A DNA stretch of 64,000 bases, from contig CAVUCU010000007.1 of assembly GCA_963740085.1 (NCBI GenBank), forward strand, positions 122,835 to 186,834. Reading direction: 5' to 3'. Below are positions 4,394 through 34,669 of this stretch, piece after piece. Under the pieces are notes generated by a model. It had not been told where the DNA came from, made no database searches, and worked only from the letters and a program-made list of their open reading frames with translations. Position 1 is the stretch's first letter. Each line of letters begins with the position of its first letter. The translations under genes were made by a program, and so were the position numbers. Origin of the DNA: Nitrospirota bacterium. Its GTDB lineage: Bacteria; Nitrospirota; UBA9217.

Positions 4394-5062
4394 CTATCCG
4401 TCCAACGGTTCTATGCTTTCCGGCGAATCGTATTTAAAAGAGTTCACCTTTGGAGTAACAGGGAATAATTCCATCTCCTCTGATGGGTAAGGATTCAATA
4501 GCCCGGGAAGAACTGAACTATCCTGAACCCTGGGATCCAGCCATAGGTCATATTTGTCCGCCGGGGCAATGACCGGCATCCGCTCGTGAATGGGCATGAC
4601 CAACTGGTTCGCGCCGGTCGTTATGATCGTACTCATCGTGAGCAGTTCACCGTCCGGGGACCCCCAGGCGTTATACAGTCCGGCAAAGCCAAATGGCTTG
4701 TGTGACTTGAGCCTGACATAGAAAGGCTTCCTTGTCGTTCCTTCCTTTCGCCATTCGTAGAATCCATCAGCCACCACAAGACACCGCTGTTTCTCGAAGG
4801 CCGATTTGAACGCCTTGCTGCTTGCAACGGTCTCCGCACGAGCATTGATCATCCCGTAGCTGGCATCAAGGTCCTGGGACCAGGACGGCACAAAACCCCA
4901 TCGGGACTTGATAAGCCTCCGTTTACCATCGTTGACGACGATCAGAATGTCCTGACTGGGCGCGATGTTATAGTGGGGCGGATATTCAAGATCCCGGTCA
5001 GCGATCCCGAATATCTCCGCGATTACCTCAATGGCGCTATGTATCTCAAATCGTCCGCACAT
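4394..5062 (-). CDS. yedK: SOS response-associated peptidase (SRAP/YedK/HMCES family)
   Basis: The hallmark N-terminus 'MCGRF' (catalytic Cys2) is present along with conserved 'YNIAPSQ' and 'ADGFYEW' motifs. An extended -10 TGCTATACT and an AGGTGA RBS are visible upstream on the minus strand. Confidence 0.9.
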   Translation of the reverse strand: MCGRFEIHSAIEVIAEIFGIADRDLEYPPHYNIAPSQDILIVVNDGKRRLIKSRWGFVPSWSQDLDASYGMINARAETVASSKAFKSAFEKQRCLVVADGFYEWRKEGTTRKPFYVRLKSHKPFGFAGLYNAWGSPDGELLTMSTIITTGANQLVMPIHERMPVIAPADKYDLWLDPRVQDSSVLPGLLNPYPSEEMELFPVTPKVNSFKYDSPESIEPLDG

Positions 5063-5129
5063 AACCGGTCACCTAACCTGTTGTAAGTATAGCACGTTGC
5101 TGCAACCGCGCCCGGGATCCAGAAAACCC

Positions 5130-5159
5130 TTGACAGGTGAACGTTCGTTCACTTATACT
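5130..5159 (+). promoter_or_regulatory. lexA promoter: -35 TTGACA (5130-5135), -10 TATACT (5154-5159), LexA dyad GTGAACGTTCGTTCAC (5137-5152; Cheo-type GAAC-N4-GTTC at 5139-5150)
   Basis: The palindrome lies in the spacer of a sigma-70-like promoter. The ATG at 5166 sits 7 nt after the -10 element, so the lexA mRNA is probably leaderless. Confidence 0.55.
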
Positions 5160-5165
5160 ATCTTC

Positions 5166-5762
5166 ATGCCATCACCGATCGCTAAGGAAGAAAAGCACCG
5201 CTCCCGCATCCGGGACATTGCCCGTTTCCAGCAGAAAAACGGCAGGATGCCCAGTTTTTCAGAGCTCGGCGAGATAACCGGTCTGCGGTCAAAGAACGCG
5301 GTATTCAAGCTTGTAGGCAAGCTGGAAAAGCTCAAGGTCGTGGCGCGGGACAAGAAGGGCAGGCTTATTCCCGGTTCGATCGCCTGCCCTGTCAAGGTGC
5401 TGGGAACGGTCGAGGCAGGCTTCCCCTCTCCCGCGGAAGAAGAGCTGGTTGATACCCTTTCCCTTGATGATTTCCTGATCCAGAACCGGGAGGCAACCTT
5501 TTTGCTCAAGGTATCCGGCGATTCCATGTCCGGCGCGGGGATACTTGCGGGTGATATGGTCATCGTGGATAAGGGCCGGACGCCAAAGAGCGGCGATATT
5601 GTGATCGCCCAGGTGGACGGTGAGTGGACCATGAAGTACTTACGGAAGCGTGGTGACAACGTGACCCTCGTAGCCGCAAACCCCAAATACCAGCCCATCA
5701 AACCGAAGCGTGAACTCAAGATCTCGGGGGTCGTGACAGCCGTGGTGAGAAAATATAAATAG
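5166..5762 (+). CDS. lexA: LexA repressor (wHTH + S24 peptidase domain)
   Basis: The C-terminal 'VSGDSMSGAGILAGDMVIVD...KYLRKRGDNVTLVAANP' has the Ser/Lys dyad context. The N-terminal 'GRMPSFSELGEITGLRS' matches the DNA-binding region. The ORF-track start at 5031 is an over-extension. Confidence 0.85.
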   Translation: MPSPIAKEEKHRSRIRDIARFQQKNGRMPSFSELGEITGLRSKNAVFKLVGKLEKLKVVARDKKGRLIPGSIACPVKVLGTVEAGFPSPAEEELVDTLSLDDFLIQNREATFLLKVSGDSMSGAGILAGDMVIVDKGRTPKSGDIVIAQVDGEWTMKYLRKRGDNVTLVAANPKYQPIKPKRELKISGVVTAVVRKYK

Positions 5763-8901: not shown

Positions 8902-8995
8902 GGGTGAAAAGACCACGATCTATTGTACTTTTTTCGCCCTCCGTCTCCGCGTCCCCCCGTCACCGTGTCGGGTTTATCATCTATCGGAGTTGTTT

Positions 8996-10309
8996 ATGAC
9001 CGACCAATTCATATCCCTCTCCTCCTGGCCGCAGGCGATCATGCATATCGACGCCGACGCCTTTTTTGCCTCCTGTGAGCAGGCGATCCATCCGGAACTT
9101 AAAGGGAGGCCGGTGATCTGCGGCAAGGAGCGCGGCATTGTCGCCGCCGCGAGCTATGAGGCAAAGGCCCGGGGAGTCACTCGCGGGGTGCGGCTTTCGG
9201 ACGTGAAGAAGATCTGTCCCGATGCGGTCATTCTTCCGTCCGATTATGAGACCTACAGTCTCTTTTCCGTTCGCATGTTCGAGATCCTGCGGCGCTTTTC
9301 ACCTGATGTCGAGGAGTACTCTATTGATGAGGCCTTTGTCGATCTGACCGGCCTGAGACGAAGCTATCATGGCCCGTATGAAGTGATCGCCGAAAAAATG
9401 CGAACAGCGATCGAGACAGAGCTGGGGATCACCGTATCGGCCGGGGTAAGCCTTTCCAAGGTCCTGGCCAAGATCGGATCAAAGCACAATAAACCGAACG
9501 GTCTCACCATGATCCCGGGGAGAGATATTCATCGTTATCTGGAGAAACTGCCTGTCGAAAAGGTCTGGGGCATAGGGGCGAACACGGCGGCATTTCTGAG
9601 AAAGCACGGGATCACAACCGCTTTGCAGTTCACAAAAAAGGACGAGGGCTTCATAAAGAAGTTTCTGTCAAAACCCTACCAGGAGATCTGGCACGAGTTG
9701 AACGGCAGGAGCGTGTACCCGGTCACCACGGAGACAAAGAACAGCTACCAGTCGATAAGCAAGGCCAGGACCTTTACGCCGCCGTCCATGGATGAGGGTT
9801 TTGTATTTGCCCAGCTCTCCAAGAACCTGGAAAACGCATGCATCAAGGCAAGGAGGTACCGGCTGGCGGCCGCGCGGATCATTGTGTTCCTCAGGAAGCA
9901 GGATTTTACGAGCAGTGGAGTGGAAATTAAGCTGACCCGGCCTACCGCGTACCCGGTGGAACTGTTCGGGCTCCTGCGCCAGGGCTTTGAGCAGGTATTC
10001 GAATCCCGGGCCTTATACCGTCAGACAGGGGTCGTTCTTTCCGGCCTGGTCGCGGAGGGCGGGATCCAGTTCAGCCTTTTCGATGATACGACAAAGATAG
10101 AGAAGATGGCCAGGATCTACAGCGTCGTTGATGAGATCTCGGCGAAGTACGGAAAGCACACCATTCAGCACGCAGCGAGCCTGCCGACGAAGCTCCAGGC
10201 CCAGCACGAGGGAGAGCGGGGTGATGTCCCGGTAAGAAGAGCGGACCTGTTCAAAGGTGAGACCAGGCGACAGCGGCTGGGACTGCCCTTACTGCATATG
10301 AAGGTGTAA
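8996..10309 (+). CDS. Y-family DNA polymerase (DinB/UmuC-like translesion polymerase)
   Basis: 'MHIDADAFFASCEQ...GRPVICG...GIVAAASYEAKARGV...SIDEAFVDLTG' matches the Y-family catalytic core. GGAG RBS is 7 nt upstream of the ATG at 8996. Confidence 0.85.
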   Translation: MTDQFISLSSWPQAIMHIDADAFFASCEQAIHPELKGRPVICGKERGIVAAASYEAKARGVTRGVRLSDVKKICPDAVILPSDYETYSLFSVRMFEILRRFSPDVEEYSIDEAFVDLTGLRRSYHGPYEVIAEKMRTAIETELGITVSAGVSLSKVLAKIGSKHNKPNGLTMIPGRDIHRYLEKLPVEKVWGIGANTAAFLRKHGITTALQFTKKDEGFIKKFLSKPYQEIWHELNGRSVYPVTTETKNSYQSISKARTFTPPSMDEGFVFAQLSKNLENACIKARRYRLAAARIIVFLRKQDFTSSGVEIKLTRPTAYPVELFGLLRQGFEQVFESRALYRQTGVVLSGLVAEGGIQFSLFDDTTKIEKMARIYSVVDEISAKYGKHTIQHAASLPTKLQAQHEGERGDVPVRRADLFKGETRRQRLGLPLLHMKV

Positions 10310-10607: not shown

Positions 10608-11999
10608 TTATTTGTCGGGCCGGGTCTTTTTTTTCTTCTTTTTAACGAGGGTCGCTTTTTTTTCCGCCGGCGCGGCTCGCTTTTTATCCGGTTTAACTGC
10701 TCGCGGCGACGATGATGGTACGAACAGGGTCGTCGTGACCGAGGAGCTGACCAACGATGGTACGGGTACAGGAGAAGTCAAGCTCAACGATGAGCCGGCA
10801 GTGTCTTGCAGGAGCAGGGGCGCAGAATGAGTCAATCTAAGCGATGAACCCGGAGCATCCTGCTGGAGCGTTGTCTCCGGAGAGGTCGGTGTAATTGCCG
10901 TAGTTACAAGAGGCTGACTTACCAGGAAATTCGTCATCGATTGCTTTGCAGGAACAACGGTTTGACGAGGGAGGGTTTCTTTGGTCGATTTCGCCTGGTA
11001 GTGATAGAGCGTGGCTCCGGCAATAAGGAGAAGCACCGCCGAGGCAACGAGGGCACTCCTGAGCCATCCTCCACTCGTCGGCCTGCTGTTGATGATCCCG
11101 GCTTCCTGCTCCGGCATCGAGTCCAGGATATTCCGCGAGACGAGGTAGTCTGCAATGCGGCGAAGCGAGGCCGCCTTCGTGGTCCTGCCCGCAAGATATC
11201 TTCCCAGTTTTCTCTCGACCTCCAGCATTGAGCCGTAGCGCTGGTGTGGTTTTTTTCTGAGACACTTCTTGATGAGCCGCTGAAGTCGCCACGGAATTTC
11301 TTTGTTGACGCGGCGCGGAGCAAGGAACTTGTCTTTCAAGATCTTAACAGTGACCGAACGGGCATCCTCATCGCTAAAGGGCTTGACACCGGTAAACATC
11401 TCGTACAATACGACGCCGAAGGAAAAGATGTCCGATCGTACATCAAGCTGCTGACCGAGGATCTGCTCGGGTGACATATAGGCGGGCGTCCCGATGAGCG
11501 TGCCGGGCAAGGTCAGGGCCTCAAGGTTCCTGGTATGAGCGATGCCGAAATCCATGAGCTTGACCTCGCCGTTCCTCTTGATCATTATATTGCTCGGTTT
11601 GATGTCGCGGTGGATGAACCCGCGCATATGCGCATAATCCAGGGCATTGCTGACCTGAATGGCGATCATGATCCCCACATCGACCGGCAGGGCCCCGATC
11701 TTCCCGATCACGTCGGCAAAGTTGGCGCCGTCAACGTATTCCATAACGATGCTGTAGGTCGGTTTGTTCCAGTAATCGTAGATGTGAACGATATTCTCGT
11801 GCTGGAGCGAAGCAGCAACCCTGCTTTCGCGCTCGAACCGCTTGACGATCTGGACATCAGCATGATAGGCCTTCTTCAGTTCCTTGATGGCCACCGGCCG
11901 GCCAAGGGACTTCTGGACGGCCTTATACACTGTGGCCATGCCCCCGGCGCCGATCTCGCCCACGACTTCATATTCATCTTTTATCTGTTGTCTCGGCAT
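10608..11999 (-). CDS. Hanks-type Ser/Thr protein kinase with TM segment, Ser/Thr/Pro-rich linker and poly-Lys C-terminus
   Basis: Kinase motifs are 'GAGGMATVYKA', 'VAIK', 'HRDIKPSNIM', 'DFG' and 'APE'. The C-terminus is '...KKATLVKKKKKKTRPDK'. The ORF-track start at 12059 is an over-extension. Confidence 0.85.
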   Translation of the reverse strand: MPRQQIKDEYEVVGEIGAGGMATVYKAVQKSLGRPVAIKELKKAYHADVQIVKRFERESRVAASLQHENIVHIYDYWNKPTYSIVMEYVDGANFADVIGKIGALPVDVGIMIAIQVSNALDYAHMRGFIHRDIKPSNIMIKRNGEVKLMDFGIAHTRNLEALTLPGTLIGTPAYMSPEQILGQQLDVRSDIFSFGVVLYEMFTGVKPFSDEDARSVTVKILKDKFLAPRRVNKEIPWRLQRLIKKCLRKKPHQRYGSMLEVERKLGRYLAGRTTKAASLRRIADYLVSRNILDSMPEQEAGIINSRPTSGGWLRSALVASAVLLLIAGATLYHYQAKSTKETLPRQTVVPAKQSMTNFLVSQPLVTTAITPTSPETTLQQDAPGSSLRLTHSAPLLLQDTAGSSLSLTSPVPVPSLVSSSVTTTLFVPSSSPRAVKPDKKRAAPAEKKATLVKKKKKKTRPDK

Positions 12000-12013
12000 A
12001 ACGATATCCTTAT

Positions 12014-12150
12014 CCGGACAAGCCGGAACCAAATATGCCACAAAGACACGAAGGCACAAAGAAATTCATACAGAGGTTTGTGATTTACCGAGTCCCTAAT
12101 TCTTCGTGTTCTCTTTGAAGCTTGGAGCCTTCGCGGCTGAATTTTGTTTT
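12014..12150. repeat. intergenic repeat family copy A (CCGGACAAGCCGGAACCAAATATGCCACA...CACGAAG...TTCTTCGTG...GCCTTCGCGGCTGAATTTTGTTT)
   Basis: It aligns with copies at 23135-23332 and 53224-53390. It sits between the PP2C and kinase genes inside an operon. Confidence 0.5.
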
Positions 12151-12177
12151 ATTTTAAGAAGATTGATTTGTAACTGT

Positions 12178-12939
12178 CTAAACCTCCGTCACCCAAACCA
12201 CGACCGCCGTGATATTGTCAATGCCCCCGCCGTCGTTTGCCGCGGCCAGCAGCTTGTGTACAGCGTCGCGGGGTCCCGTTGTTGACAGGAGACCGATGAT
12301 CTCTGCATCATCAACCATTCCCGTCAGGCCGTCGGTGCACAGGAGCAGCCGGTCCTCCCGCTGCAGCGCGAGCGAGGTGATGTCCGCCTTCACCTCTTCA
12401 TCGATGCCCAGGGCCCGGGTGATCACATGTCGGTAAGGACTCGTCCTCGCCTGCTCGGGCGTAAGTGCGCCGGCGCGGAGCTGCTCTGCCACGAAAGAAT
12501 GGTCATTCGTCAGCTGCGTGAGCTTCCCGGACCGGAGGAGATAAGCACGGCTGTCACCGATATGAGCAATAAACATGCGGCCCTTCCGGAGCAGAAGTGC
12601 GGTAAGCGTGGTTGCCATACCTGCGAGCCCCGGATTGTGAGTGTGTACCGCGCGAATAGTACGGTTCGCGAGGTTGAGCGCATTCGTAAGCGCCATGGTT
12701 TCGGGATCTGCTCTGGACGTCACTCCTGCCGGAGGAGTCCTGTCCTTTTCTCCGAGCAGGTCCGGCATGGAAGCCGCGAGTGTCTCAACGGCCATGCGGC
12801 TCGCGACCTCTCCTCCCTCGTTCCCCCCCACCCCGTCCGCAACAGCATAGAGGCAGAATTCGTCGTTCAGCAGATACGCGTCTTCGTTATTGGTTCTCTT
12901 TTTACCGGTATCGGTCCCGCCGAAGGAGGCTATCTTCAT
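12178..12939 (-). CDS. PP2C-family Ser/Thr protein phosphatase
   Basis: 'GGTDTGKKRTNNEDAY', 'VADGVGGNEGGEVAS' and the C-terminal 'DGGGIDNITAVVV' are present. Confidence 0.85.
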   Translation of the reverse strand: MKIASFGGTDTGKKRTNNEDAYLLNDEFCLYAVADGVGGNEGGEVASRMAVETLAASMPDLLGEKDRTPPAGVTSRADPETMALTNALNLANRTIRAVHTHNPGLAGMATTLTALLLRKGRMFIAHIGDSRAYLLRSGKLTQLTNDHSFVAEQLRAGALTPEQARTSPYRHVITRALGIDEEVKADITSLALQREDRLLLCTDGLTGMVDDAEIIGLLSTTGPRDAVHKLLAAANDGGGIDNITAVVVWVTEV

Positions 12940-13353
12940 TTACCCGATCTCGTATGTCCGGCTCTTACCAATGTCTTCGAGTATAAACTGGAGAACAGTA
13001 TCTCCAACGCTGAATTTATCGCCATGGTGCAAGGTGGTCTCTTTGATGAGCGTCCCACTCATCCGCGTACCGTTCGTACTCTCCATGTCTCTGAGCCGGT
13101 AATTTCCTTCACCATACTCGATGGCCGCATGCTGACGCGAGACCTGGGCGTCCTTCAGGGCAATGTCGGCGCCCGCATCCCTGCCGATCACCGTGTTCTC
13201 CTTGGTGATCAGGAATTCCATGCCCTCCCCGTATCCCTTTATGATAACCACGGAGGCTTGAAACCTTTCTGGTATTTTTTTCAACGGCTGAGATTGCTTC
13301 TTTATTTGGGTCTTGTCATTCCCGGATCTCGATCCTGTCATCTTCCCCTCCAA
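12940..13353 (-). CDS. FHA domain protein
   Basis: 'TVIGRDAGADIALKDAQVSRQHAAIEY...YRLRDMESTNGTRM' is an FHA core. Its stop is immediately followed by the PP2C ATG (TAAATG). Confidence 0.8.
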   Translation of the reverse strand: MEGKMTGSRSGNDKTQIKKQSQPLKKIPERFQASVVIIKGYGEGMEFLITKENTVIGRDAGADIALKDAQVSRQHAAIEYGEGNYRLRDMESTNGTRMSGTLIKETTLHHGDKFSVGDTVLQFILEDIGKSRTYEIG

Positions 13354-13461
13354 CGTGACGTCATCAGCCTTCGAATATGATAGGGCAAACCCGGGAATAC
13401 GTCAAGACCAAACCCGGTTTTAAGGATTATCATTCCCTTCGCATTGTGATACAATGTCCCC

Positions 13462-14811
13462 ATGAAAAAGAAGGACCAGGAAAATTCACCATCGCGGCGG
13501 ACAACGAGCGACCAGACCAGGGCCCTGACCGGCCTGATCCGGAAGCCGCTTGTTCTGAAAAAAGCCCGCTTCGTGGTGAACCGTGGTCAGGACGAAGGCA
13601 AAGAGATGGTGCTCCAGGACCCCCGCGTCACGATCGGAACTCTCCGGGAGAACAATCTCGTGCTTACCGACACCACGGTTTCGCGCCAGCACGCCATCGT
13701 GGAGGAAACGGCGAAGGGCTACCTGCTCCGCGATCTCGACAGTACCAACGGCACCTTCCTCAACGGCGTGCGCGTCCGCGAGGGATATCTAGCAGCCGGC
13801 TCCCTCATCCGTCTGGGACAGACCGAGCTGACCTTCTCGCCCCTGGAAGAGCATCTCGAGAACCTTCGCAGCTCAGCGGACCGCTTCGGCGCGCTTATCG
13901 GTTCCTCTCCTCCCATGCAGGAGGTCTACGGTATTCTCGAGCGCATCGCACCGACGGACGTCACGGTCCTTCTGGAAGGCGAGACCGGCACCGGCAAGGA
14001 GCTTGCCGCCCGTGCAATCCACGCCAACAGCCGAAGGGCCGACAGCCCTTTTATCGTGTTCGACTGCGGCGCTGTAGCGCCGAACCTCATCGAGAGCGAA
14101 CTGTTCGGCCACGAGAAGGGCGCGTTCACCGATGCGGTCAAAGACCGTCAGGGTGCGTTCGAACTCGCGGACAAAGGCACCATCTTTCTTGACGAGATCG
14201 GGGAACTCTCCCTCGACCTCCAGCCGAAGCTCCTCCGCGCGCTGGACCAGCGCCAGACCAAGCGGGTGGGGGCCGACAAACCGGTCTCGATACACGTCCG
14301 GGTCATCTCCGCGACCAACAAGGACCTTGAAGAAGAAGTCAAGGCCGGACGATTCCGCGAGGACCTCTACTACCGCCTCTCGGTAGTGCGCGTAACCATG
14401 CCCCCGCTTCGGAAGAGGAAGGAAGACCTCGAAACCATCGCAGGGCTTTTGCTCGCGGAAATATCCGCGGAGATCAACAGGAAGATCACGGGCCTTTCTG
14501 CCGAGGCCTCTGCGGCGCTTGCCGCATATTCCTGGCCCGGCAATGTGCGCGAGCTCAAGAATGTCCTTGGGCGGGCCGCGGCGCTCTCCGACAGCGGGCG
14601 GATCGAGCCAAAGGACCTGTTCCTCTCCCAGGGGAAGAAGAACGTCACCCTCGAAGGTCTGAGCGGCAAAACACTGGAAGAGATCGAAAAGGCCGCTATC
14701 CATGCCACGCTCAAGTCAGTGAGCAACAATAAGACCGAGGCCGCCAGGGTGCTCGGCATCGCCTATTCAACGCTGTACGAAAAGATGAAGAAGTACAGGA
14801 TGAAGGAATAA
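13462..14811 (+). CDS. FHA-domain sigma-54-dependent transcriptional activator (FHA + AAA+ enhancer-binding domain + Fis-type HTH)
   Basis: FHA '[25 protein letters not shown]...[14 protein letters not shown]', Walker A 'GETGTGKE', 'GAFTDA' and a sigma-54 interaction module are present, plus a C-terminal HTH '[19 protein letters not shown]'. Confidence 0.85.
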
Positions 14812-25068: not shown

Positions 25069-26097
25069 CTACACCATCCCCGCCAGGTCCCGGATCAGCT
25101 TTTCCGAATCCTTCCATCCAAGGCACGGATCGGTGATGGACTTGCCATACACGTTCTCCGTTACCTTCTGCGTACCTTCTTCGATAAAACTCTCGATCAT
25201 GAAACCCCTGACCATGTTCTTGAGCAGCGAAGAATGGCGGCGGCTCTGCATCACTTCCATTGCGATCCGGGGCTGTTCGGCGAACTTTTTGTCGGAATTC
25301 GCATGGTTCGTGTCAACGATGATCGCCGGGTTTGTGAGTCCGCGCTTCTGGTAGGACTCGGCGAATAGCTTGAGGTCCTCATAGTGATAATTGGGGACCG
25401 CGAGGCCATGATAGTCAACTGCGCCACGAAGGACGGCGTGCGTGAGCGGATTGCCGGGGGTCTTCACTTCCCACCGGTTGTAGCTGAAAACATGGGGCGC
25501 CTGGGCTGCCTGGATGGAATTAAGCGTCACTTCCATGTCGCCCGATGTCGGGTTCTTCATGCCCACGGGAATATCGAGACCGCTGCACGTCAGCCGGTGC
25601 GCCTGATTCTCAACCGAGCGTGCGCCCACGGCAACATAGCTCAGGACATCCTCGAGGTAGGGATAGTTTCCGGGGTAGAGCATCTCGTCGGCTGCGGGAA
25701 TATGGGATTCCCTGAGCGCCCGGATATGCATCTTCCTGATCGCCTTGATCCCTTCGACGATGTTCGGCTTTTCCTGGAGTTTCGGCTGATGGGCCATGCC
25801 CTTGTACCCGATCCCGGTTGTGCGCGGCTTGTTGGTGTAGATGCGCGGGATGATGATGATCCTGTCCTTCACCTCGGCCTGGACCTTTGCCAGCCGCGCG
25901 ATGTAATCGCACACCGCCTCTTCATCGTGGGCCGAGCACGGCCCGATGATCAGGATGAACTTGTTGTTCTCGCCGCTGAACGCCGCCTTGATGTCCTGGT
26001 CGCGCTTTTTCTTGATTTCCACCAGCTCCGGGGAAAGTGGCATCGCTGCAAGGACCTCCTGGGGCGGAGGAATTTCTTGAACATATTCAAAGCTCAT
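25069..26097 (-). CDS. 3-deoxy-7-phosphoheptulonate (DAHP) synthase, class I
   Basis: 'IIGPCSAHDEE' and 'KPRTTGIGYKGM' are class I DAHP synthase hallmarks. The length (approximately 342 aa) fits. Confidence 0.8.
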   Translation of the reverse strand: MSFEYVQEIPPPQEVLAAMPLSPELVEIKKKRDQDIKAAFSGENNKFILIIGPCSAHDEEAVCDYIARLAKVQAEVKDRIIIIPRIYTNKPRTTGIGYKGMAHQPKLQEKPNIVEGIKAIRKMHIRALRESHIPAADEMLYPGNYPYLEDVLSYVAVGARSVENQAHRLTCSGLDIPVGMKNPTSGDMEVTLNSIQAAQAPHVFSYNRWEVKTPGNPLTHAVLRGAVDYHGLAVPNYHYEDLKLFAESYQKRGLTNPAIIVDTNHANSDKKFAEQPRIAMEVMQSRRHSSLLKNMVRGFMIESFIEEGTQKVTENVYGKSITDPCLGWKDSEKLIRDLAGMV

Positions 26098-26287
26098 ATC
26101 CGGTTCATCCCTTCTCTGCTCAGTTCGTTATGAGTGTGAGCGCGTGGCATGCAGTATAAAATCCAACCCCGAGTAAGTCAAGCCAAAAAACATAAAAAGG
26201 CCCCTCCTTCGGCACGAACATCCCTTGCCGGCGTGATCGACAAAAAACATCTGGCCTTTTTTGCCGTAATATTGTATAAATCTTGCC

Positions 26288-27214
26288 ATGGCAAAGAAAT
26301 TCTGGGCAAAATTCAAAGGCGGCAAGTTCGACCGCTCCGTCATCATCGGGATCATCATTGCCGTGCTCGTGATAGCGCTCACGCTCTGGGGCCCGCTCCG
26401 CAAATTCCGTGTGGCGGAGGAACGGAAACCCGCTGCACAGGCGCAGAAACAGGAATTGATCAAGAAAAAATCCGGGAAGAAAGTCAAGAAAGAAGCCCAA
26501 GCATTAAAAAATCAGGCTGAAAGTCTCGTTGCAGGGTCTTATGAAAGAACGGTCCCCGTCGCCATTGTGATCGACGATCTGGGGCAGGACGTAAAACTGG
26601 CGAAAGAGGTCCTCGCGCTGCCCGGAAAGCTCACCCTTGCTGTTATGCCGGGACTTGCGCAGTCAACTGCTATTGCCGAACTGGCAAAGCAGTCCGGCCG
26701 GGAGGTCCTTCTCCACCTGCCCATGGAACCCTTGAAGAACCATGAAAAAACACGATCTCCAGGCACCTTGAGCGTGGATATGACCCCCATGGCGTTCCTG
26801 AATACCGTGAACGACGATGTGGCGTCGGTACCCGGAGCTGTCGGCGTGAACAACCATGAAGGCTCGGCGCTGACGGAGAACCTTGAGGCCATGAAATTCC
26901 TGATGGCGGAGCTCAAATCACGCAATCTTTTTTTCCTCGACAGCATGACCACCCCGAAAAGCGTTGCCTATGCGACGGCCATCGAGTTTGGCATGAACGC
27001 CGCCAGGCGCGACGTATTTCTGGACAATGAAGGCGACAACCCGTTATATATCCGCGGACAGCTTGAAAAGCTGATAGAAATTGCCCGCAATCATGGCAAG
27101 GCCATCGGCATCGGGCATCCGCATCCGGCAACGCTCAGCGAACTCAGAAAGTGGCTTGCTGAGACCGGCGCCGAGGGGATCGAGATCGTGCCGGTATCAA
27201 GATTGATGCAGTAG
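26288..27214 (+). CDS. divergent polysaccharide deacetylase family protein (YibQ-like) with N-terminal TM anchor
   Basis: An N-terminal hydrophobic helix and Lys-rich linker are followed by 'VAIVIDDLG', 'GVNNHEGS' and 'IGHPHPATL'. Confidence 0.7.
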   Translation: MAKKFWAKFKGGKFDRSVIIGIIIAVLVIALTLWGPLRKFRVAEERKPAAQAQKQELIKKKSGKKVKKEAQALKNQAESLVAGSYERTVPVAIVIDDLGQDVKLAKEVLALPGKLTLAVMPGLAQSTAIAELAKQSGREVLLHLPMEPLKNHEKTRSPGTLSVDMTPMAFLNTVNDDVASVPGAVGVNNHEGSALTENLEAMKFLMAELKSRNLFFLDSMTTPKSVAYATAIEFGMNAARRDVFLDNEGDNPLYIRGQLEKLIEIARNHGKAIGIGHPHPATLSELRKWLAETGAEGIEIVPVSRLMQ

Positions 27215-27315
27215 AAGAACAGGGTCATGGGACATGGGTCATGGGTCAAAAAGCACTTATGCTTTCCTTGATCTTCGCCCCCTGACCCCTGCCCCGTGCC
27301 CCTTTCTTTAAACCC

Positions 27316-28320
27316 ATGTATACCCTCGGAATAGAAACCTCATGCGATGAAACCGCGGCTGCGGTGCTGCAGGACGAAAAGGTACTGTCAAACATAGTAT
27401 CCTCGCAGATCGACATCCACAAAAAATTCGGCGGCGTGGTCCCCGAACTCGCATCACGTGAGCACCTTAAGAACCTGATGCCTGTTATCCGCGAGGCGCT
27501 TACCTCCGCATCGGTTACACTCAAGGACATCAACCTCATCGCGGTCACGTACACGCCCGGCCTGATCGGCGCGCTGCTCGTGGGAGTGTCCGCTGCCAAG
27601 GCCATTGCGTATGCGAGCGGCATCCCCTTCATCGGCGTGCACCACGGTGAAGGGCACATCCTCGCGGCGCATATCGAGTATCCGGGTATCGGTTATCCTT
27701 ACATTGCCCTCCTCGTGTCGGGTGGACATACAGCGATCTACCACGTCAAGGGCCTCGGCGAATACCGTCTCCTTGGCCAGACGCGGGACGACGCAGCGGG
27801 CGAAGCCTATGATAAGGTAGCTAAGCTGCTTGGTCTCGAATACCCCGGCGGTCCGGTGCTCGACAAACTCGCCCAGGAGGGCAATCCAGGGACAGTCAAA
27901 TTTCCACGAGGCCATCTGGAGGGCTGCGACTTCAGCTTCAGCGGGCTCAAGACCGCGGTCAGAAACCACCTTGCCCTCTTCAGGAGCAAAGACAAGGGAC
28001 TCGACCCGGGCCTGAACATCAAGGACATTGCGGCCAGTTTTCAGGCTGCGGTCGTGGACACGCTCGTTAACAAGACCATGCAGGCGGCAAGCGGAACGGG
28101 CGTGGACAAGATCGTGGTTGCCGGCGGCGTGGCTGCGAACAGTCTGCTCCGGAAAAGAATGCTGGATGAAGCGGGGAAGCACGGCGCCACACTCTATCTC
28201 CCGGCTATGGGCCTCTGCATCGACAACGCCGCCATGATCGCCCTCGCGGGATATCTCCACCATCAACGCGGCGAGAACTCAAACCTTGACCTGAATCCCC
28301 GACCCGGCATGCCGCTGTGA
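27316..28320 (+). CDS. tsaD: tRNA N6-adenosine threonylcarbamoyltransferase TsaD
   Basis: 'MYTLGIETSCDETAAAVL', 'GVHHGEGH' and 'VAGGVAAN' are present. Confidence 0.9.
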   Translation: MYTLGIETSCDETAAAVLQDEKVLSNIVSSQIDIHKKFGGVVPELASREHLKNLMPVIREALTSASVTLKDINLIAVTYTPGLIGALLVGVSAAKAIAYASGIPFIGVHHGEGHILAAHIEYPGIGYPYIALLVSGGHTAIYHVKGLGEYRLLGQTRDDAAGEAYDKVAKLLGLEYPGGPVLDKLAQEGNPGTVKFPRGHLEGCDFSFSGLKTAVRNHLALFRSKDKGLDPGLNIKDIAASFQAAVVDTLVNKTMQAASGTGVDKIVVAGGVAANSLLRKRMLDEAGKHGATLYLPAMGLCIDNAAMIALAGYLHHQRGENSNLDLNPRPGMPL

Positions 28321-28330
28321 ATTATTCTCA
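28284..28330. repeat. direct repeat L (attL-like): last 37 nt of tsaD plus 10 nt downstream
   Basis: 43 of 47 nt match 31882-31928. Confidence 0.6.
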
Positions 28331-28685
28331 CATAGGCTGTTTGAAAACACCTAATTTATTCGCGCACTGCCACAATGCCATTTTCTTGTCGTGCGGTGCT
28401 GAGATTTTACCAACTTCACCTACTAGTCCGCAATTGCAGATAGACGAAACTATCGTTAAATACGGATTGTAAAGTGCACACATCGCCCGTAAATTTTTTT
28501 CATCTTTTGCGTCGAATGCCGTCCGCCGTATTGGCGCTAGTCGCGGTATCCTTCCGATGTCTGGTCTGTTCGAAGCTTGTCAGATCCGAAGAGCGGAAGT
28601 CGGTAGGATAGCACGTATACAACTATTCAAGCTCTCTGTTTGATACAACAAGGGAAGTCGCCCAGCCGCCGGGCAACCGAGGTTG

Positions 28686-29555
28686 TTAAGAGGTGGTTGA
28701 TGACAAATTCAAGATCTTGGATTTCACTACATTTTTACCGGTTTCCCTGGCCGAATTCATAAGATCTTCGGCCATAGCGATCAGTTCATCTAATGTGCAT
28801 GTCGGGCCGTCGCAGGTAACGACACCTGTACTGAATGCTACCGGCCAGCCCTTTTTTTTCACCATATCCAGAAGACGTTCCTGAACTTTATAAATGATAA
28901 CCGTGGCGTTCTCATTATTTGTTTCCGGCATAAGAACAGCGAATTTGGAACCCCCAAGTCTCGAAATTATATCTGTGAGCCGCAATGTTGACCCCATGAT
29001 CTGGGCTAATTCATGGAGGAGGTAATCGCCTGCAATATGGCCGAGGGTGTCATTTACCTGTCGTAAATTATCTATATCGATATATGCTAGAGTGAGAGGT
29101 AGTTTAGATATAGTCGATCTGCTGATTTCAATACGTGCCTGCTCATAAAAGAATTTGATATTAGCTACGCCCGTCAAATCGTCGGTGTCGGCATGTTCAT
29201 GTTCCTTTATCAATGATTTTTTTAAGGTTGCAATGGAATAGGCAACGATTAAAAACATACTTAGCACCAGTGTGGCGTTCCAAATGCGAACAGTGATATG
29301 AGAATAATTATGTCCAGACATCAGGTCAGACGTTGCCCAGGTGATAGCACTGAAAATTGATACCAGGACGGTAGGCATTCCTCCCACGTACCAAGCGATC
29401 AGTATGATGGGAAGAAGATAGAGCACATCTAGGGAAATATCATAGCTCGCTATAGTATCAAGACCGCCGATTGCCAATACGAGGAGCAATCCGAAAATCG
29501 TAAGAATTGATTTTGGGAGTTTTTCAGGGAATTCTATGATTTTCTTTATCCGCAT
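28686..29555 (-). CDS. membrane-anchored GGDEF-domain protein with degenerate active site (GGSKF) and intact RxxD I-site
   Basis: Four to five N-terminal TM helices are present. The GGDEF fold has 'RLTDIISRLGGSKFAVLM' (RxxD-xxx-RLGG then S-K-F in place of D/E-E-F). GC content is lower than the flanks. Confidence 0.8.
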   Translation of the reverse strand: MRIKKIIEFPEKLPKSILTIFGLLLVLAIGGLDTIASYDISLDVLYLLPIILIAWYVGGMPTVLVSIFSAITWATSDLMSGHNYSHITVRIWNATLVLSMFLIVAYSIATLKKSLIKEHEHADTDDLTGVANIKFFYEQARIEISRSTISKLPLTLAYIDIDNLRQVNDTLGHIAGDYLLHELAQIMGSTLRLTDIISRLGGSKFAVLMPETNNENATVIIYKVQERLLDMVKKKGWPVAFSTGVVTCDGPTCTLDELIAMAEDLMNSARETGKNVVKSKILNLSSTTS

Positions 29556-29792
29556 AACAGCCGATGCTTGCAGTGGTAGATAATATTAAATGATCTTCTT
29601 TGGCCCGCCCTGTAAGCTAGACCTCGGGTAACGGGATGAGCATTTTCTGTAAAATAGCACTCATCCTTATAGCTATTATTTCTTTGCAGATAATAGCTTA
29701 TGCCTATAAAAATTACTAGTTGAACTATGTACATGAATAGCGTGTTGAAAAAGTACAGGTTACAGGACGTTATATATGCTGCACTCTTCACG

Positions 29793-30593
29793 TTAGGTTC
29801 GACCCTCTGGTTGTTCACCTTCTCGTGCGACGCTGTTTTTCATTCTTACCCACTGGTCTATGAACGTTTGGAGCAACGTTTTATCCTTGTCCGTCAGATC
29901 GACAAACTCCGACCCTATATCATAGTGTGTTTGCCCCTTGTTTTCCTTCATGTGGCATGAAGCAATTCGTCCGATAAAATTGACCGCGGTGCCATCATTC
30001 AGAGACAATTCCATGGGGACCTTGCTTTCTATTGCCAGAGCCTGATCAGTCTGGATGAGCATGCCGCTGAGACTGATTGTTTTCACATTAAAATTCGCGG
30101 GATAGCTCAAAACATGCTCATTCAGACCGGTAATTTGAAATCTGACATTGAGCCTCCGCTCCTCCGGTAATGGCGCTTTTTCTTTTTGGTTTTGCACTAT
30201 TGATTTAAGAAAATCGGCGACCTGATCCGCTGAGCTCTCTTTAAACTGCATGCCTACAGCGTATATGGAGACACTTTCCCCGTTGTCTCTTGCCTCTATT
30301 CCCTTGAGCTCGGAACGGACTATAATGCCCGTTACATTGAGAGTCTTCCCTTTATCCTGGAGCTTGATCGTATATTCCCTGCCGGGATTCAGTCTCCGGT
30401 CCGATTTCAAGGCAACTCCGCCGAGACCGATATCAAGGATCTCCACTTTATCGGATAAACTCATCTTGCCCTTTAAGTCATTTAACTCCAGGTAGTATCT
30501 TTTATGTCGTCTCGTGTTGTTCATGATAGGTTTCTTCTCAATTGACAAGTTGTCAGAATACTCATTCTGAGAGCTCATGTCTACAAAAGCCAT
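29793..30593 (-). CDS. tandem PilZ-domain protein
   Basis: PilZ 1 has 'RRHKR' (RxxxR) and 'DIGLGGVAL'. PilZ 2 has 'RRLNVR' and 'ISLSGML' (partly degenerate). Confidence 0.75.
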   Translation of the reverse strand: MAFVDMSSQNEYSDNLSIEKKPIMNNTRRHKRYYLELNDLKGKMSLSDKVEILDIGLGGVALKSDRRLNPGREYTIKLQDKGKTLNVTGIIVRSELKGIEARDNGESVSIYAVGMQFKESSADQVADFLKSIVQNQKEKAPLPEERRLNVRFQITGLNEHVLSYPANFNVKTISLSGMLIQTDQALAIESKVPMELSLNDGTAVNFIGRIASCHMKENKGQTHYDIGSEFVDLTDKDKTLLQTFIDQWVRMKNSVAREGEQPEGRT

Positions 30594-30650
30594 GGATTAC
30601 TCCTGGCTTAATCAGTCTTGACCTGCGCAATCTATTCATGGTTCCATCCC

Positions 30651-31133
30651 TTACGTCATGATCGTGACGTTTTCGATCGCGCTCCCCACGACAAAGACCC
30701 TTTTGTTATTGCTATCTTCGTCAACGGGGATGAGGAAAAACCCCTTGGCCCCCTTGCCCAGCTTGGATAGGGAAAACCCCTTGTCCCAGGGGATCTCACC
30801 CTCGATGAACCCGACCAGCGATTCTTTATCGATGAACTTAACAAAAACCTTTCGGCCAAGGTTCTTCCTGCTCCCGAAAACCTTCCGTTCGACATATCGA
30901 CTGGAGCCCTCAAAGCTCTTGACGAAAAAAATCGCCTTCAGCTCTTCCATCGGGACGCGGTTTTCCTTGTTTGTCTGGTCACTCATGATGAGCGTGTCCG
31001 ATTCTATACTGAAATTTCTCACGAAGCCCTTCAAAAGTCTTCCGTCCCTGAACCTGGCGACGATCTTTTCTCCTTCATTATTTTTCAAACAGTCACCTCC
31101 GGAGCACCGATTAATTGTTCCCAGGATACTCAA
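30651..31133 (-). CDS. uncharacterised conserved protein (160 aa), family A paralog 2
   Basis: It shares motif blocks with the 3929-4357 product ('VARFRDGRLLKGFVRNF', 'LKAIFFVKSFEGSS', 'GFFLIPVDEDSNNKRVFVV'). Confidence 0.6.
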   Translation of the reverse strand: MSILGTINRCSGGDCLKNNEGEKIVARFRDGRLLKGFVRNFSIESDTLIMSDQTNKENRVPMEELKAIFFVKSFEGSSRYVERKVFGSRKNLGRKVFVKFIDKESLVGFIEGEIPWDKGFSLSKLGKGAKGFFLIPVDEDSNNKRVFVVGSAIENVTIMT

Positions 31134-31145
31134 TCTGGGAATAAT

Positions 31146-31481
31146 TCAACCAACAAACCGGCCAAGCAGTATATCCTCAAGATTGCGTCTTGCATCGAGG
31201 ACGGCGAGAACATATACAGTTTGGCCGGATATTCTGCAAATCATTCTCCAGGGGGCAATGATTATTTCCCGATAGAGAATAATGCCCTGTTCCTTCAACT
31301 CAGGCACAACAACGCGGCCTCTTTCCGGCAGGACATGCAAGCCAACCGCCTTCTTGCGCATTCTTTCCACTATCTTCAGCGCCTCATCGATACTGTCTTC
31401 GGCGATAAATCCGATGATTGAATCCAAATCATACTCAGCGGTGGCCGTCCATTTGACGGTAAAGTTACGACTCATCGGCAT
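31146..31481 (-). CDS. ParE/RelE-family type II toxin
   Basis: The approximately 110-aa product has a ParE-like composition ('WTATAEYDLDSI', 'ERGRVVVPELKEQGII'). It overlaps the upstream Phd/YefM gene by 17 nt. Confidence 0.65.
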   Translation of the reverse strand: MPMSRNFTVKWTATAEYDLDSIIGFIAEDSIDEALKIVERMRKKAVGLHVLPERGRVVVPELKEQGIILYREIIIAPWRMICRISGQTVYVLAVLDARRNLEDILLGRFVG

Positions 31482-31764
31482 TTCGCTGTTTCCTGGCCTT
31501 CAGCTTGTGCTCAAGACGTTTGAAAATATCCTCCTGTTCACTGGTCCTTCCAAGACGAATATCCTCTTCTCCCTGAGCAAGGACCTTCATCAAACCTATT
31601 GCGGACTTCATGCGCTCATACGATTCAGGGTCTTGCAGAACGGCGCGTGGTTCCCCGTTTTGCGTGATAATGACCGGCCTGTGCGTTTCATTGATCTGCA
31701 GCAATATATCCGCGGCCTTTGATTTGAGATACGTCACGGGTCGAATGTCTTCACTGATTTTCAT
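31465..31764 (-). CDS. Phd/YefM-family antitoxin
   Basis: 'MKISEDIRPVTYLKSKAADILLQINETHRPVIITQNGEPRAVL' is the Phd/YefM fold signature. The ORF-track start at 31833 is an over-extension. Confidence 0.75.
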   Translation of the reverse strand: MKISEDIRPVTYLKSKAADILLQINETHRPVIITQNGEPRAVLQDPESYERMKSAIGLMKVLAQGEEDIRLGRTSEQEDIFKRLEHKLKARKQRNADES

Positions 31765-31881
31765 TCTCCACCTCCTGTCCGAATAACGTACCATAAAAGG
31801 TCCTTTAACGCAAGCGGCTTTTTCGGTCATCAAATGACTTTACGCCCATGGGTTAAACTTTAAGCGTGGCGATATCTCCAG

Positions 31882-31928
31882 CCTTGACCTGAACCCCCGC
31901 CCCAGCATGCCGCTGTGAGTTATTCTCA
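31882..31928. repeat. direct repeat R (attR-like): diverged copy of the tsaD 3' end
   Basis: 91% identical to 28284-28330. It would encode ...LDLNPRPSMPL* in the tsaD frame. Confidence 0.6.
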
Positions 31929-32273
31929 ATTAATGCAAAATAGTTCTTGCTATTCCCTCATAATACTGTATTATGCACGTCGACTGTTTAACATTGCGGC
32001 AGGATTTGACTGAAGTACACACACACGTCATCATCTCTCTGCCCTTCATATCATCGATCTCTAACCCCCCTTGTTTTCAGCCCCCGCTCTGAAATCACAG
32101 CAGCACGTATGGTTGGCGAACGATGTAGTTATGCCGGTCATATTTGTGCTGGCGTCGTCTTCGCTCTCAGGGATACCTTTGTGCCCCTGCGGCCCGCACG
32201 CAAACCCTTAACGGGATTTCTGTTTCCGGAATGAATATATCTTCATTTCGGCGTAAGAGATCAAAGGAGTCGT

Positions 32274-33665
32274 ATGTCTTTTTCAAAATTGCAGCTCATC
32301 GAACCGATCCTGAAAGCAATAAAACTGTGCGGCTACACCACGCCCACGCCCATCCAGGAGCAGGCTATTCCCAAGGCACTGGCGGGTCAAGACCTGATCG
32401 CAACAGCCCAGACCGGGACCGGCAAAACCGCGGCCTTCGTGTTGCCGGCGCTCCAGCGTTTGAGCGTACCCTCCATAGCAGCGGGACGGTCCAAAGGACC
32501 CCGCGTACTCGTACTGACACCCACGCGCGAACTGGCCAATCAGATAACCGAGGCGGTCAGAACCTACGGCAAGTTCATGCGCATCCGGAGCGGCGCGATC
32601 CTCGGCGGCATGCCCTACTTCGAACAGCAGCGTCTTCTGTCCCAGCCGGTGGATCTGATCGTAGCCACACCCGGACGTCTCATGGACCATATGGAGCGGG
32701 GACAGATCAATTTCTCGCGCCTCGAACTGCTCGTGCTCGATGAGGCTGATCGCATGCTCGACATGGGATTCAGCGAGGCAGTGGACACCATCGCGGCCGC
32801 GACCCCGGCCACGCGCCAGACCATGATGTTCACCGCAACCATGGACAATTCGATGGCTAGGCTTGCCCAGCGTCTGCTCAAGGACCCGGTACGGGTCGAG
32901 ATCGCCGGCAAGAAGACCACCCTTGAAACGATCGAACAGCGCCTTCACGCGGCCGACGACATGCAGCATAAGAACCGCATGCTCAAACACCTGATCTCGG
33001 ACAGCGGCATGACCAGGGCGATCATCTTCTCGGGCACCAAACGAAACGCCGACCAGCTGGCGAACGAACTGCACGCCCAGGGCCACTCAGCCGCGGCGCT
33101 GCACGGCGACATGAGCCAGAACGCCCGCAACCGCACCATCATGAACATGAAGCGCGGCAAGATCCGGCTGCTCGTTGCAACAGACGTGGCCGCACGCGGG
33201 CTTGACGTCATCGGCATCACCCATATCATCAATTACGACCTTCCGAAGAATGCCGAGGACTACGTACATCGCATCGGTCGCACCGGGCGTGCAGGTGCAA
33301 CAGGCATCGCCATCTCCTTCGCGTCGTCCAGGGAAGTGGACTCCCTGCGCAGTATCGAACGCTATATCGGACAAAGCATTCCCCAGCAGATCATTGCGGG
33401 ACTGGAACCGGCGCGCCCCTTACGCCGGTCAAGCAGCGGGGGCAGTCCGACGCCGTCATCGGGGAAACGATGGCAGGGCGCCTCGACCGGCAAACGGTAT
33501 GGCCAGAACGCCGCACCCCGAAGTCCCTTTGGTTCGAAAACCACCCGTCGCTCGGATTCTGATGGCCGATTCTTCAGAGACGAGAAGAAGAGTGTCAAGC
33601 AGGATGGCGGGAAGTTTGGGGATTTCCGCAAGCCAAAGCAATACAGTCAGAGCCGGTGGACCTAG
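32274..33665 (+). CDS. DEAD-box ATP-dependent RNA helicase (RhlE-like) with basic C-terminal tail
   Basis: Q-motif, 'AQTGTGKT', 'PTRELA', 'DEAD', 'SAT' and 'HRIGRTGRAG' are present. Confidence 0.9.
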   Translation: MSFSKLQLIEPILKAIKLCGYTTPTPIQEQAIPKALAGQDLIATAQTGTGKTAAFVLPALQRLSVPSIAAGRSKGPRVLVLTPTRELANQITEAVRTYGKFMRIRSGAILGGMPYFEQQRLLSQPVDLIVATPGRLMDHMERGQINFSRLELLVLDEADRMLDMGFSEAVDTIAAATPATRQTMMFTATMDNSMARLAQRLLKDPVRVEIAGKKTTLETIEQRLHAADDMQHKNRMLKHLISDSGMTRAIIFSGTKRNADQLANELHAQGHSAAALHGDMSQNARNRTIMNMKRGKIRLLVATDVAARGLDVIGITHIINYDLPKNAEDYVHRIGRTGRAGATGIAISFASSREVDSLRSIERYIGQSIPQQIIAGLEPARPLRRSSSGGSPTPSSGKRWQGASTGKRYGQNAAPRSPFGSKTTRRSDSDGRFFRDEKKSVKQDGGKFGDFRKPKQYSQSRWT

Positions 33666-33692
33666 TCAAGATCAGGATATATCATTGCTCGG

Positions 33693-33725
33693 AAGGCGCC
33701 TCACCTTGAGGCGCCTTTTTTTTTA
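33693..33725 (+). terminator. rho-independent terminator (AGGCGCCTCA / TGAGGCGCCT stem + T9)
   Basis: The hairpin and T-run are visible 28 nt after the helicase stop. Confidence 0.6.
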
Positions 33726-33918
33726 CGATCATCTCCCTTTATTATTGTAGTGAGCGCCGTAAGCCTTCGGGTCGCCTCTCGATGCCTCTCCCTTTATTTC
33801 AGTAGAAACCTGGCGCACAGAACATTTTTTTGCATTCTTTAAAATTCGATCCGATATTTTCTCATCTTTGCAAAGCAACTTACTCCCCGCTTCTAAATAA
33901 ATTCAACCAGTTGCGTTT

Positions 33919-33934
33919 TGGCATGCTAGATGCA
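33919..33934 (+). promoter_or_regulatory. putative sigma-54 promoter TGGCATGCTAGATGCA (GG-N10-GC)
   Basis: It lies 40 nt upstream of the AAGGAGG-ATG of the first small membrane protein gene. It is near-identical to the minus-strand site at 21610-21626. Confidence 0.5.
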
Positions 33935-33973
33935 ATAACCAAAGCAAGACACTGCGAAAAGGAGGAAACGAAA

Positions 33974-34297
33974 ATGAAAAACACACTTGCAAGAAAAACA
34001 GCGTACATCGGGGCCGGTGCGGGTTTGGTGCTCTTCGCGATCTTCGGACTTCTCCCGGGCAGTTTGATTGGCGGAGCGGCCGGACTAAAATTAGTTGGTA
34101 TGCTCTTCAACCAGACTCTTGAGGCGGGGATCATCTCGCGGGGCATCGTACTGGCATCCATGCTCATGGGCGTCGTGGTCTCAGGTATCGCCGTCGTGAC
34201 GGCTACGTCAACCACAGGATGGCTTCTGGGAAGAGTGATAGAGGCATCGGTACACCAAGCCGATCCGGAAGCAGCAGTTGTCGTCAGAAATCAATAA
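33974..34297 (+). CDS. small glycine-zipper membrane protein (107 aa), paralog 1 of tandem pair
   Basis: AAGGAGG RBS is present. Two hydrophobic Gly-rich helices are predicted. It is similar to the downstream ORF. Confidence 0.6.
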   Translation: MKNTLARKTAYIGAGAGLVLFAIFGLLPGSLIGGAAGLKLVGMLFNQTLEAGIISRGIVLASMLMGVVVSGIAVVTATSTTGWLLGRVIEASVHQADPEAAVVVRNQ

Positions 34298-34351
34298 TCG
34301 GTCAAGAAGATCGAGATTAAACTAAACAGCTGAGGCTGGAAGGAGATTATC

Positions 34352-34669
34352 ATGAAGAACGAAACGGTAAAAGCGGGTATGAAGATCGGTGCAACGGTAG
34401 GTGGTTTGGTTTTCCTGGTGTTTGGCATCATGCCGGGGTTCTATTTCGGCAGCTTCGGAACTCTGGTCCTGCTCCAGAAGTTGATGGGAGGCCCGGTTGA
34501 GCCGACCCTCTTCGTCAGGGCCGCCGTGGTGATGGGAATCGTGGTTGGGATCGCCTGTGCAGCGACAGTGAGCGTTGTGATAGGAGGACTCGCCGGCACG
34601 GTCGCCGGGTATGTGGTATCGGCGCCTGCTGCATTGCGGGGGAAACAAGCTGCTGAGGAAAAAGCCTAA
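34352..34669 (+). CDS. small glycine-zipper membrane protein (105 aa), paralog 2
   Basis: GGAGA RBS is present. The helix layout and motifs match the 33974-34297 product. Confidence 0.6.
   Translation: MKNETVKAGMKIGATVGGLVFLVFGIMPGFYFGSFGTLVLLQKLMGGPVEPTLFVRAAVVMGIVVGIACAATVSVVIGGLAGTVAGYVVSAPAALRGKQAAEEKA

Follow-up and report, generated by a model that had tools for sequence, protein, structure and literature searches.

The 3.6-kb stretch that lies 3' of the essential gene tsaD in an uncultured Nitrospirota bacterium is described here, with coordinates that refer to the window, the whole 64-kb stretch of DNA that was analysed. We propose, with a probability of about 0.6, that it is an islet of composite origin. 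It would lie in a hypervariable chromosomal hotspot of one Nitrospirota lineage, which extends from the stop codon of tsaD to the promoter of a DEAD-box helicase gene. The duplicated end of tsaD that borders it is an old scar, and the 3.6 kb is a patchwork and not a discrete mobile element. From left to right, the locus consists of tsaD, its terminus, a flank of type A, the cargo, a ParE-Phd toxin-antitoxin pair, the displaced terminus, a short spacer of the type seen in the related locus L002, and the helicase promoter. Recombination hotspots of such a kind are already known, and the tsaD locus is a fresh example, in which a layer of toxin-antitoxin genes is combined with a relic duplication of the target.

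The locus has been compared with 32 tsaD loci from genomes, 80 from JGI metagenomes, and further loci collected by exact-protein look-ups. In each related locus, 10 kb on either side of tsaD was looked at with a partial scan of the open reading frames (ORFs), and the conserved block upstream of the DEAD-box helicase gene (31937-32207) was used as the right-hand anchor. All genomes used are metagenome assemblies, and the nearest genome records to the window TsaD are Nitrospirota metagenome-assembled genomes. A 201-kb contig in an ENA metagenome assembly carries an identical TsaD protein. Orthologues of tsaD, 70-92% identical, are present in more than 100 Nitrospirota loci. Positions 17317-38321 of the window are also represented in a public ENA version of the contig (L081), to which they are 99.83% identical over 21 kb, with 33 mismatches and 2 gaps.

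The segment is an insertion beside tsaD. About 38 of the related loci are empty, with only 9-193 nucleotides (nt) from the tsaD stop codon to the helicase promoter block. The right-hand repeat of the window, together with the DNA downstream of it, can be aligned without a break to the empty sites of two loci, L002, at 89% over 418 nt, and L003. Since the right copy is colinear with these empty sites, it represents the displaced native tsaD terminus, and in both L002 and L003 the empty locus equals one repeat copy plus the flanks. A search of the empty spacers for relic tsaD fragments, of the sort that excision would leave as scars, gave none that exceeded shuffle scores.

The two copies of the tsaD end match over 64 nt with 86% identity and form the longest direct repeat within 26000-34000, although their longest perfect run is only 14 nt. 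The 47-nt core (28284-28330 against 31882-31928) matches at 43 positions with 4 mismatches, while a match to this 47-mer with three or fewer mismatches is expected 0 times in 100 shuffles of the window. Similarly, local alignment of the tsaD end with the insert gives a score of 41.5, whereas shuffles reach 12.5 at most. The right-hand copy is translated in frame, ending in ...RGDISSLDLNPRPSMPL before the stop codon. In the ENA contig version the left copy has AAC where the window has AAT, which raises the match to 44/47, so that one of the four core mismatches is unstable between contig versions. When polarised, the repeat differences did not show which copy is foreign, as both copies are about equally near to the tsaD ends of relatives (best L104, 50/54 and 49/54). 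An earlier sequence-only reading of this DNA had described the 47-bp repeat, the in-frame downstream copy, and an insertion that should be missing from related genomes. All of these have been upheld, and the repeat has been extended. That reading had also named two observations that would count against it. Among the relatives compared, none has the same gene content contiguous with tsaD and no repeat, and the repeat similarity is beyond chance.

The left end of the segment differs in character from the rest. The first ~170 nt past tsaD (28321 to ~28490) share 82% identity with the flank of tsaD in L082 and 78% with that in L108. The core of this block, AACTTCACCTAC..GCAATTGCAG..ACGAAAC, is common even to relatives at 76-77% TsaD identity, and it also lies 68-135 nt past the tsaD stop codon in the distant loci L153, L156, and L179. 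These identities suggest that the first ~170 nt of the segment are probably the native tsaD flank and not inserted DNA. A small gene was considered for this conserved end and discarded, as there are stop codons in all frames across relatives. A structured RNA was discarded as well, with a consensus fold unsupported on either strand and no match in Rfam. A metagenome scan for the left-end junction pattern returned 0 matches.

The cargo that follows is of mixed descent. All five cargo genes lie on the minus strand, and Pfam agrees with the five domain calls of the sequence-only reading, whose uncharacterised "family-A" protein corresponds to DUF6982. Between the repeats (28331-31864) the GC content is 45.5%, compared with a window mean of 54.2% (standard deviation 2.8% in 3.5-kb windows), and this is the lowest-GC 3.5-kb stretch of the 64 kb. 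The GC drop noted in that reading is thus real, but it does not mark a foreign donor, because the PilZ and DUF6982 genes have an equally low GC (45-51%) at core loci of relatives that are 54-55% GC overall.

The PilZ segment (29763-30588) is ~91% identical at the nucleotide level to a PilZ gene in the core locus of L183, L185, and L186, where the gene order is DUF3786, an unknown gene, PilZ, PilZ, FtsJ, and dxs. The true start of the gene in the window is likely at 30524, which would give a protein of 243 amino acids (aa), the same length as its homologues. The RxxxR motif is kept in both PilZ domains, and the D/NxSxxG motif is one residue off in each (DIGLGG and TISLSG). The DUF6982 protein shows 79-86% aa identity to those of L099-L101, with 83-87% nt identity over the segment 30644-31116. 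In several Nitrospirota, DUF6982 is a conserved single gene adjoining hemE (URO-D), located at 8001-8444 in L099 and L100. Judged by these identities, each of these two genes is a gene-sized copy of a Nitrospirota chromosomal gene, and the counterparts of the two in relatives sit at separate core loci.

The third signalling-type gene of the cargo encodes a membrane protein whose GGDEF catalytic motif reads GGSKF, in agreement with the degenerate active site described earlier, while the RxxD site (RLTD), five residues upstream, is intact. With this combination and a membrane-type N-terminus, the protein is most likely a receptor of cyclic dimeric guanosine monophosphate (c-di-GMP) and not a cyclase. 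No homologue of the gene was found in other hotspot loci, and so far it has been seen only in the window genome. The sequence-only reading had taken the cargo to be a self-contained c-di-GMP module stabilised by a toxin-antitoxin system. This view is not sustained, as the GGDEF, PilZ, and DUF6982 genes were not found together elsewhere, and the nearest PilZ and DUF6982 relatives, at their two separate core loci, have no GGDEF neighbour. A c-di-GMP function for DUF6982 was also considered and rejected. The model of the protein consists of two small five-stranded beta-barrels (predicted local distance difference test score (pLDDT) 75), its Sm/Hfq/Tudor-like matches are weak throughout, and hemE is the neighbour of the native gene. 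The family is not mentioned in the literature searched.

The last part of the cargo is the toxin-antitoxin pair. The antitoxin gene comes first, phd overlaps parE by 17 nt, both ORFs are intact, and their Pfam scores are above the cut-off. In at least 10 further loci, relatives of Phd with 84-92% identity are found at this position beside tsaD. As the intact and most persistent part of the islet, Phd-ParE fits an addiction role, in which the pair would penalise its own loss.

In at least 17 related loci the same spacer is occupied, by 854-9319 nt, and no fewer than nine different contents have been seen there (Table 1). The only parts of the window islet that recur in them are Phd-ParE and the tsaD fragment, accompanied there by other cargo or by none. 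The junction between the tsaD fragment and the DNA upstream of Phd (...TTTAAGC/GCG..GCGAG..., with the slash at the join) is identical in three loci, L087/L088 and L090, from at least two other genomes. The fragment is 40 nt long in L087/L088 and 52 nt in L090, and a degenerate trace is present in L082. This shared junction indicates that the scar belongs to the Phd-ParE layer and is older than the window genome. When 12 other occupied loci were tested for a duplicate of their own tsaD end, none scored above shuffles, and the window alone was significant. Toxin-antitoxin-only loci that have no scar exist (L084, L109, and L112), and in the unrelated context of L091-98 the same toxin-antitoxin family is found with no tsaD fragment.

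The same set of loci bears on two other explanations. A local rearrangement, in which the tsaD 3' region was tandemly duplicated in situ or exchanged unequally in an ancestor that already had Phd-ParE, would require no imported terminus. It would account for the native-type flank at the left end, for a scar confined to one lineage of loci, and for the lack of mobility genes in the window or loci scanned. However, the sequences that follow the two copies differ, tsaD running into the type A flank and tsaD' into the short L002-type spacer, so a simple tandem duplication would need extra deletions; the scar-free toxin-antitoxin-only loci also argue against it. We consider this explanation unlikely, though the least unlikely of those that compete with the composite islet. 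A chimeric metagenome join could have created both the apparent insertion and the repeat, given that the data are metagenome assemblies throughout and that the window and the ENA contig disagree at 33 positions over 21 kb, one of which falls in the left repeat. Against such an artefact, at least 10 independent assemblies (ENA, JGI, NCBI, and Logan) place Phd-ParE at this locus, the tsaD' junction recurs in L087, L088, and L090, and the flanks are contiguous on one 201-kb contig. The likelihood of an artefact is very slight.

The occupancy of the spacer changes between otherwise similar loci. L082 and L001 have flanks that are 98% and 96.5% identical, but between these flanks L082 contains 2.6 kb and L001 only 86 nt of unrelated sequence. 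In a comparison of the window with L082, the nucleotide identity is 99.3% for Phd and 97.0% for ParE, compared with 88.7% for tsaD and 92.9% for the helicase. In a tsaD tree, the loci occupied by toxin-antitoxin genes fall in at least seven clades, and several of them adjoin sisters with empty sites. These comparisons show a spacer whose presence, absence, and content appear to change by homologous recombination in the conserved flanks. Many hotspots have been found to lack mobile elements and to diversify via recombination at flanking core genes (PMC5635113, 2017), and examples include the minimal mobile elements of Neisseria (PMC3787668) and the core defence hotspots of Pseudomonas aeruginosa (PMC10250203). 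The tsaD locus resembles these in its single conserved flanking gene pair, its many contents that include defence and toxin-antitoxin genes, its lack of any integrase or transposase found, its mosaic identities, and the different occupancy of near-identical genomes. It differs in its setting, at tsaD in uncultured Nitrospirota, and in that one of its layers has the 64-nt terminus duplicate, which a double crossover in the flanks does not yield.

The sequence-only reading had noted that no integrase is present and had interpreted the segment as an integration remnant with attL and attR ends, possibly mobilised in trans. The first point agrees with all of the searches made. No Pfam match to an integrase or transposase was obtained in the islet or among the other genes called in 17.3-38.3 kb, nor among the ORFs of 180 aa or more that were taken from the remaining parts of the window, a few of which have no Pfam match at all. 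None was found in the occupied loci checked by the partial ORF scan, nor beside tsaD among ten ORFs from ten more distant loci, four of which have no Pfam match. The ORFs with a Pfam match at distant Nitrospirota tsaD loci encode PGK, a PALP enzyme, and a solute-binding protein. A BLAST search of the islet against plasmid and phage collections gave no match, and scans of IMG/VR found neither a mimic of the tsaD end, as expected for a single attP-like copy, nor relatives of Phd.

Islands that enter the 3' ends of protein genes through a site-specific recombinase are well known and include recombinase-less remnants, such as SGI1 in trmE and SCCmec or pseudo-SCC in rlmH. Tycheposon-derived islands of Prochlorococcus, described in a preprint, are reportedly another example of islands at gene 3' ends. 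The islet resembles islands of this class in that the repeats are a duplicated gene terminus, the target remains intact with its original end displaced, and unrelated cargo accretes. Unlike in those islands, no recombinase has been found in ~17 occupied sites, the tsaD repeats have diverged, the DNA is composite and partly native flank, and element-specific ends do not recur.

If the segment were a discrete integrative element with its integrase lost, or a satellite, the copies of the tsaD end would be its attL and attR, and a site-specific recombinase encoded elsewhere in the genome would still excise and integrate it. The direct repeats that duplicate a gene terminus and restore the gene, the empty sites in the closest relatives, and the patchy distribution are all consistent with this explanation, and the second toxin-antitoxin-like pair located just past tsaD' in L090 can be read as re-use of an att-like site. 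Of the earlier interpretation, the insertion itself, the lack of an integrase, and the degenerate GGDEF site are upheld. The repeats, however, are only 86% identical with no perfect run above 14 nt, and the DNA that they bound is not one unit, its left ~170 nt being native flank. Every other occupied locus has different content and no integrase was found in any of them, other occupants do not have a tsaD-end duplicate, and no attP-like single copy or relative was found in IMG/VR or in the phage and plasmid collections. No paper in the literature searched ties tsaD to an integrase and attB as an attachment site, and nothing was found in support of a satellite mobilised in trans. An integrative element is thus improbable, somewhat more so than a local rearrangement. 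If the tsaD terminus did prove to be an attachment site, it would be a new target gene for integrative elements.

For the composite islet, we propose a history in two layers. In the older layer, the Phd/YefM-ParE addiction cassette would have arrived on DNA that bore its own tsaD terminus and 3' flank, most plausibly chromosomal DNA of a relative. Recombination within the last ~54 nt of tsaD would have kept the gene intact and moved the original terminus, tsaD', to the far side. For the joining, a circular molecule may have undergone one homologous crossover, or homologous recombination at one end may have been paired with an illegitimate join at the other. A site-specific recombinase that was later lost (attP x attB) would be an alternative route to the same product. 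The homologous routes are favoured because the new terminus is followed by a flank of the usual kind that relatives have after tsaD, and because neither a recombinase nor an attP-like copy was found in genomes, phages, plasmids, or IMG/VR. In the later layer, seen in the window genome only, the DUF6982, tandem PilZ, and degenerate GGDEF genes would have gathered between the tsaD flank and parE. What exists today would be an islet that has no means of movement of its own and whose loss the toxin-antitoxin pair probably penalises.

A variation of this scheme gives the cassette a more active part. Phd-ParE with its attached tsaD terminus could be a recombinase-free "homing" addiction cassette that inserts into relatives via host recombination, with the ~54-nt terminus copy as the homology arm. 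The essential gene would be spared, and the displaced terminus would become a landing pad for cargo, as in L090. We regard this idea as speculative and a little less probable than an integrative element.

Several points weigh against the composite islet as we propose it. A duplicated gene terminus such as the 64-nt one here is also what attP x attB integration classically yields. The recombination route is one that we infer, and an integrase could lie beyond the 10 kb inspected on each side or among the ORFs outside the scan. The comparison relies on metagenome assemblies in every genome. The c-di-GMP block is known only from the window contig and its near-identical ENA version, and it may be an extra or a relocated copy. 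Finally, the patchy distribution of the toxin-antitoxin pair is compatible with repeated gain and with repeated loss alike.

Type II toxin-antitoxin cassettes stabilise variable chromosomal regions, for example chromosomal integron arrays. As in those arrays, Phd/YefM-ParE edges a variable array of same-strand genes and is its most persistent part. The tsaD locus differs from them in that its spacers have no attC-like sites and no IntI was found, and the stabilisation itself is a presumed one. An integron array or attC cluster was accordingly rejected as a description of the locus, as the RYYYAAC...GTTRRRY pair is absent from every spacer on both strands.

The DNA beside tsaD forms a gene-flux hotspot in an uncultured Nitrospirota lineage, and is a place to seek strain-specific toxin-antitoxin, defence, and signalling genes. 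The locus is also a worked example of how a duplicated gene terminus and a GC dip alone do not prove a discrete mobile element, since here the layer that holds the repeat predates the greater part of the cargo, and at least two cargo genes are intrinsically low in GC.

Table 1. Features of the tsaD-helicase region in the window, and flank cores and spacer occupants in related loci (positions preceded by a locus name, or given for a named locus, are those of that locus).
Feature	Position or locus	Strand	Basis
tsaD, tRNA t6A37 threonylcarbamoyltransferase, complete, 334 aa	27316..28320	+	Pfam TsaD E=2.7e-100
Left direct repeat: final 54 nt of tsaD with its stop codon, and the next 10 nt	28267..28330	+	Repeat search, shuffles
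Conserved non-coding tsaD 3' flank, core about 28413-28490	28321..28490	.	Identity to flanks of relatives
Membrane protein, degenerate GGDEF domain	28686..29555	-	Pfam GGDEF 1.1e-30; DUF4118-like N-terminus weak, below cut-off
Tandem PilZ protein	29793..30593	-	Pfam PilZ, two stretches
DUF6982 protein, 145 aa	30651..31088	-	Pfam DUF6982 3.7e-26
ParE-family toxin, 111 aa	31146..31481	-	Pfam ParE_toxin 1e-13; 97.0% nt identity to L082
Phd/YefM antitoxin, 99 aa	31465..31764	-	Pfam PhdYeFM 2.1e-16; same protein in L082
Right direct repeat: displaced original tsaD 3' end (tsaD', 31865-31918) plus 10 nt native spacer	31865..31928	+	Colinearity with empty sites L002, L003
Promoter-like site TTGCTA-16-TATTAT and long leader of DEAD-box helicase, right-hand hotspot anchor	31937..32207	+	86-93% nt identity across loci
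DEAD-box RNA helicase, conserved right flank	32274..33665	+	Pfam DEAD and Helicase_C; synteny
Flank core in distant relatives	L153:11073-11140, L156:8120-8162, L179:932-981		Conserved block comparison
Phd-ParE alone	L084-86, L109, L112		Spacer occupant
Phd-ParE and 1.6 kb of decayed zinc-ribbon ORFs	L082		Spacer occupant
Phd-ParE, MNT/HepT, and PAS histidine kinase	L089 (same contig as L111), 11124-13885		Spacer occupant
DUF4258 pair and Phd-ParE	L090; DUF4258 pair 9105-9640, directly after tsaD fragment		Spacer occupant
Phd, inverted ParE fragment, TOTE system, MauJ-like protein, TPR protein	L030:11006-18600		Spacer occupant
VapBC (PIN and RHH)	L103:11048-11706		Spacer occupant
Cytochrome, Mo-enzyme, phosphoesterase, BcsC-like, BcsA cluster	L008		Spacer occupant
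Sulfatase-family membrane protein	L133, L148		Spacer occupant
Big_2 protein	L127		Spacer occupant
Small ORFs	L019, L032		Spacer occupant

Among the spacer occupants, the TOTE conflict system of L030 includes an AEP-TOTE primase-helicase fusion. On the right-hand side of the hotspot, the promoter-like site is located at 31947-31974, and the ~270 nt upstream of the DEAD-box helicase gene probably serve as a long leader with a regulatory role. In this leader (32101-32151), the sole Rfam match is a chance one to mir-15, below the threshold, and no tRNA or tmRNA was found in the islet or the spacers. Beyond the helicase gene, two paralogous small glycine-rich membrane proteins of 107 and 105 aa are encoded at 33974-34669, between two DEAD-box helicase genes. 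This pair is kept in many relatives and has no Pfam family. Elsewhere in the window (4394-5762 and 8990-10309), two oppositely directed genes, for an SRAP-family protein and for an S24 (LexA/UmuD-like) peptidase, share an overlap of their 5' ends. At a distance of 3 kb there is a gene for a Y-family polymerase (IMS), and together these genes resemble an SOS-type damage-tolerance cluster.

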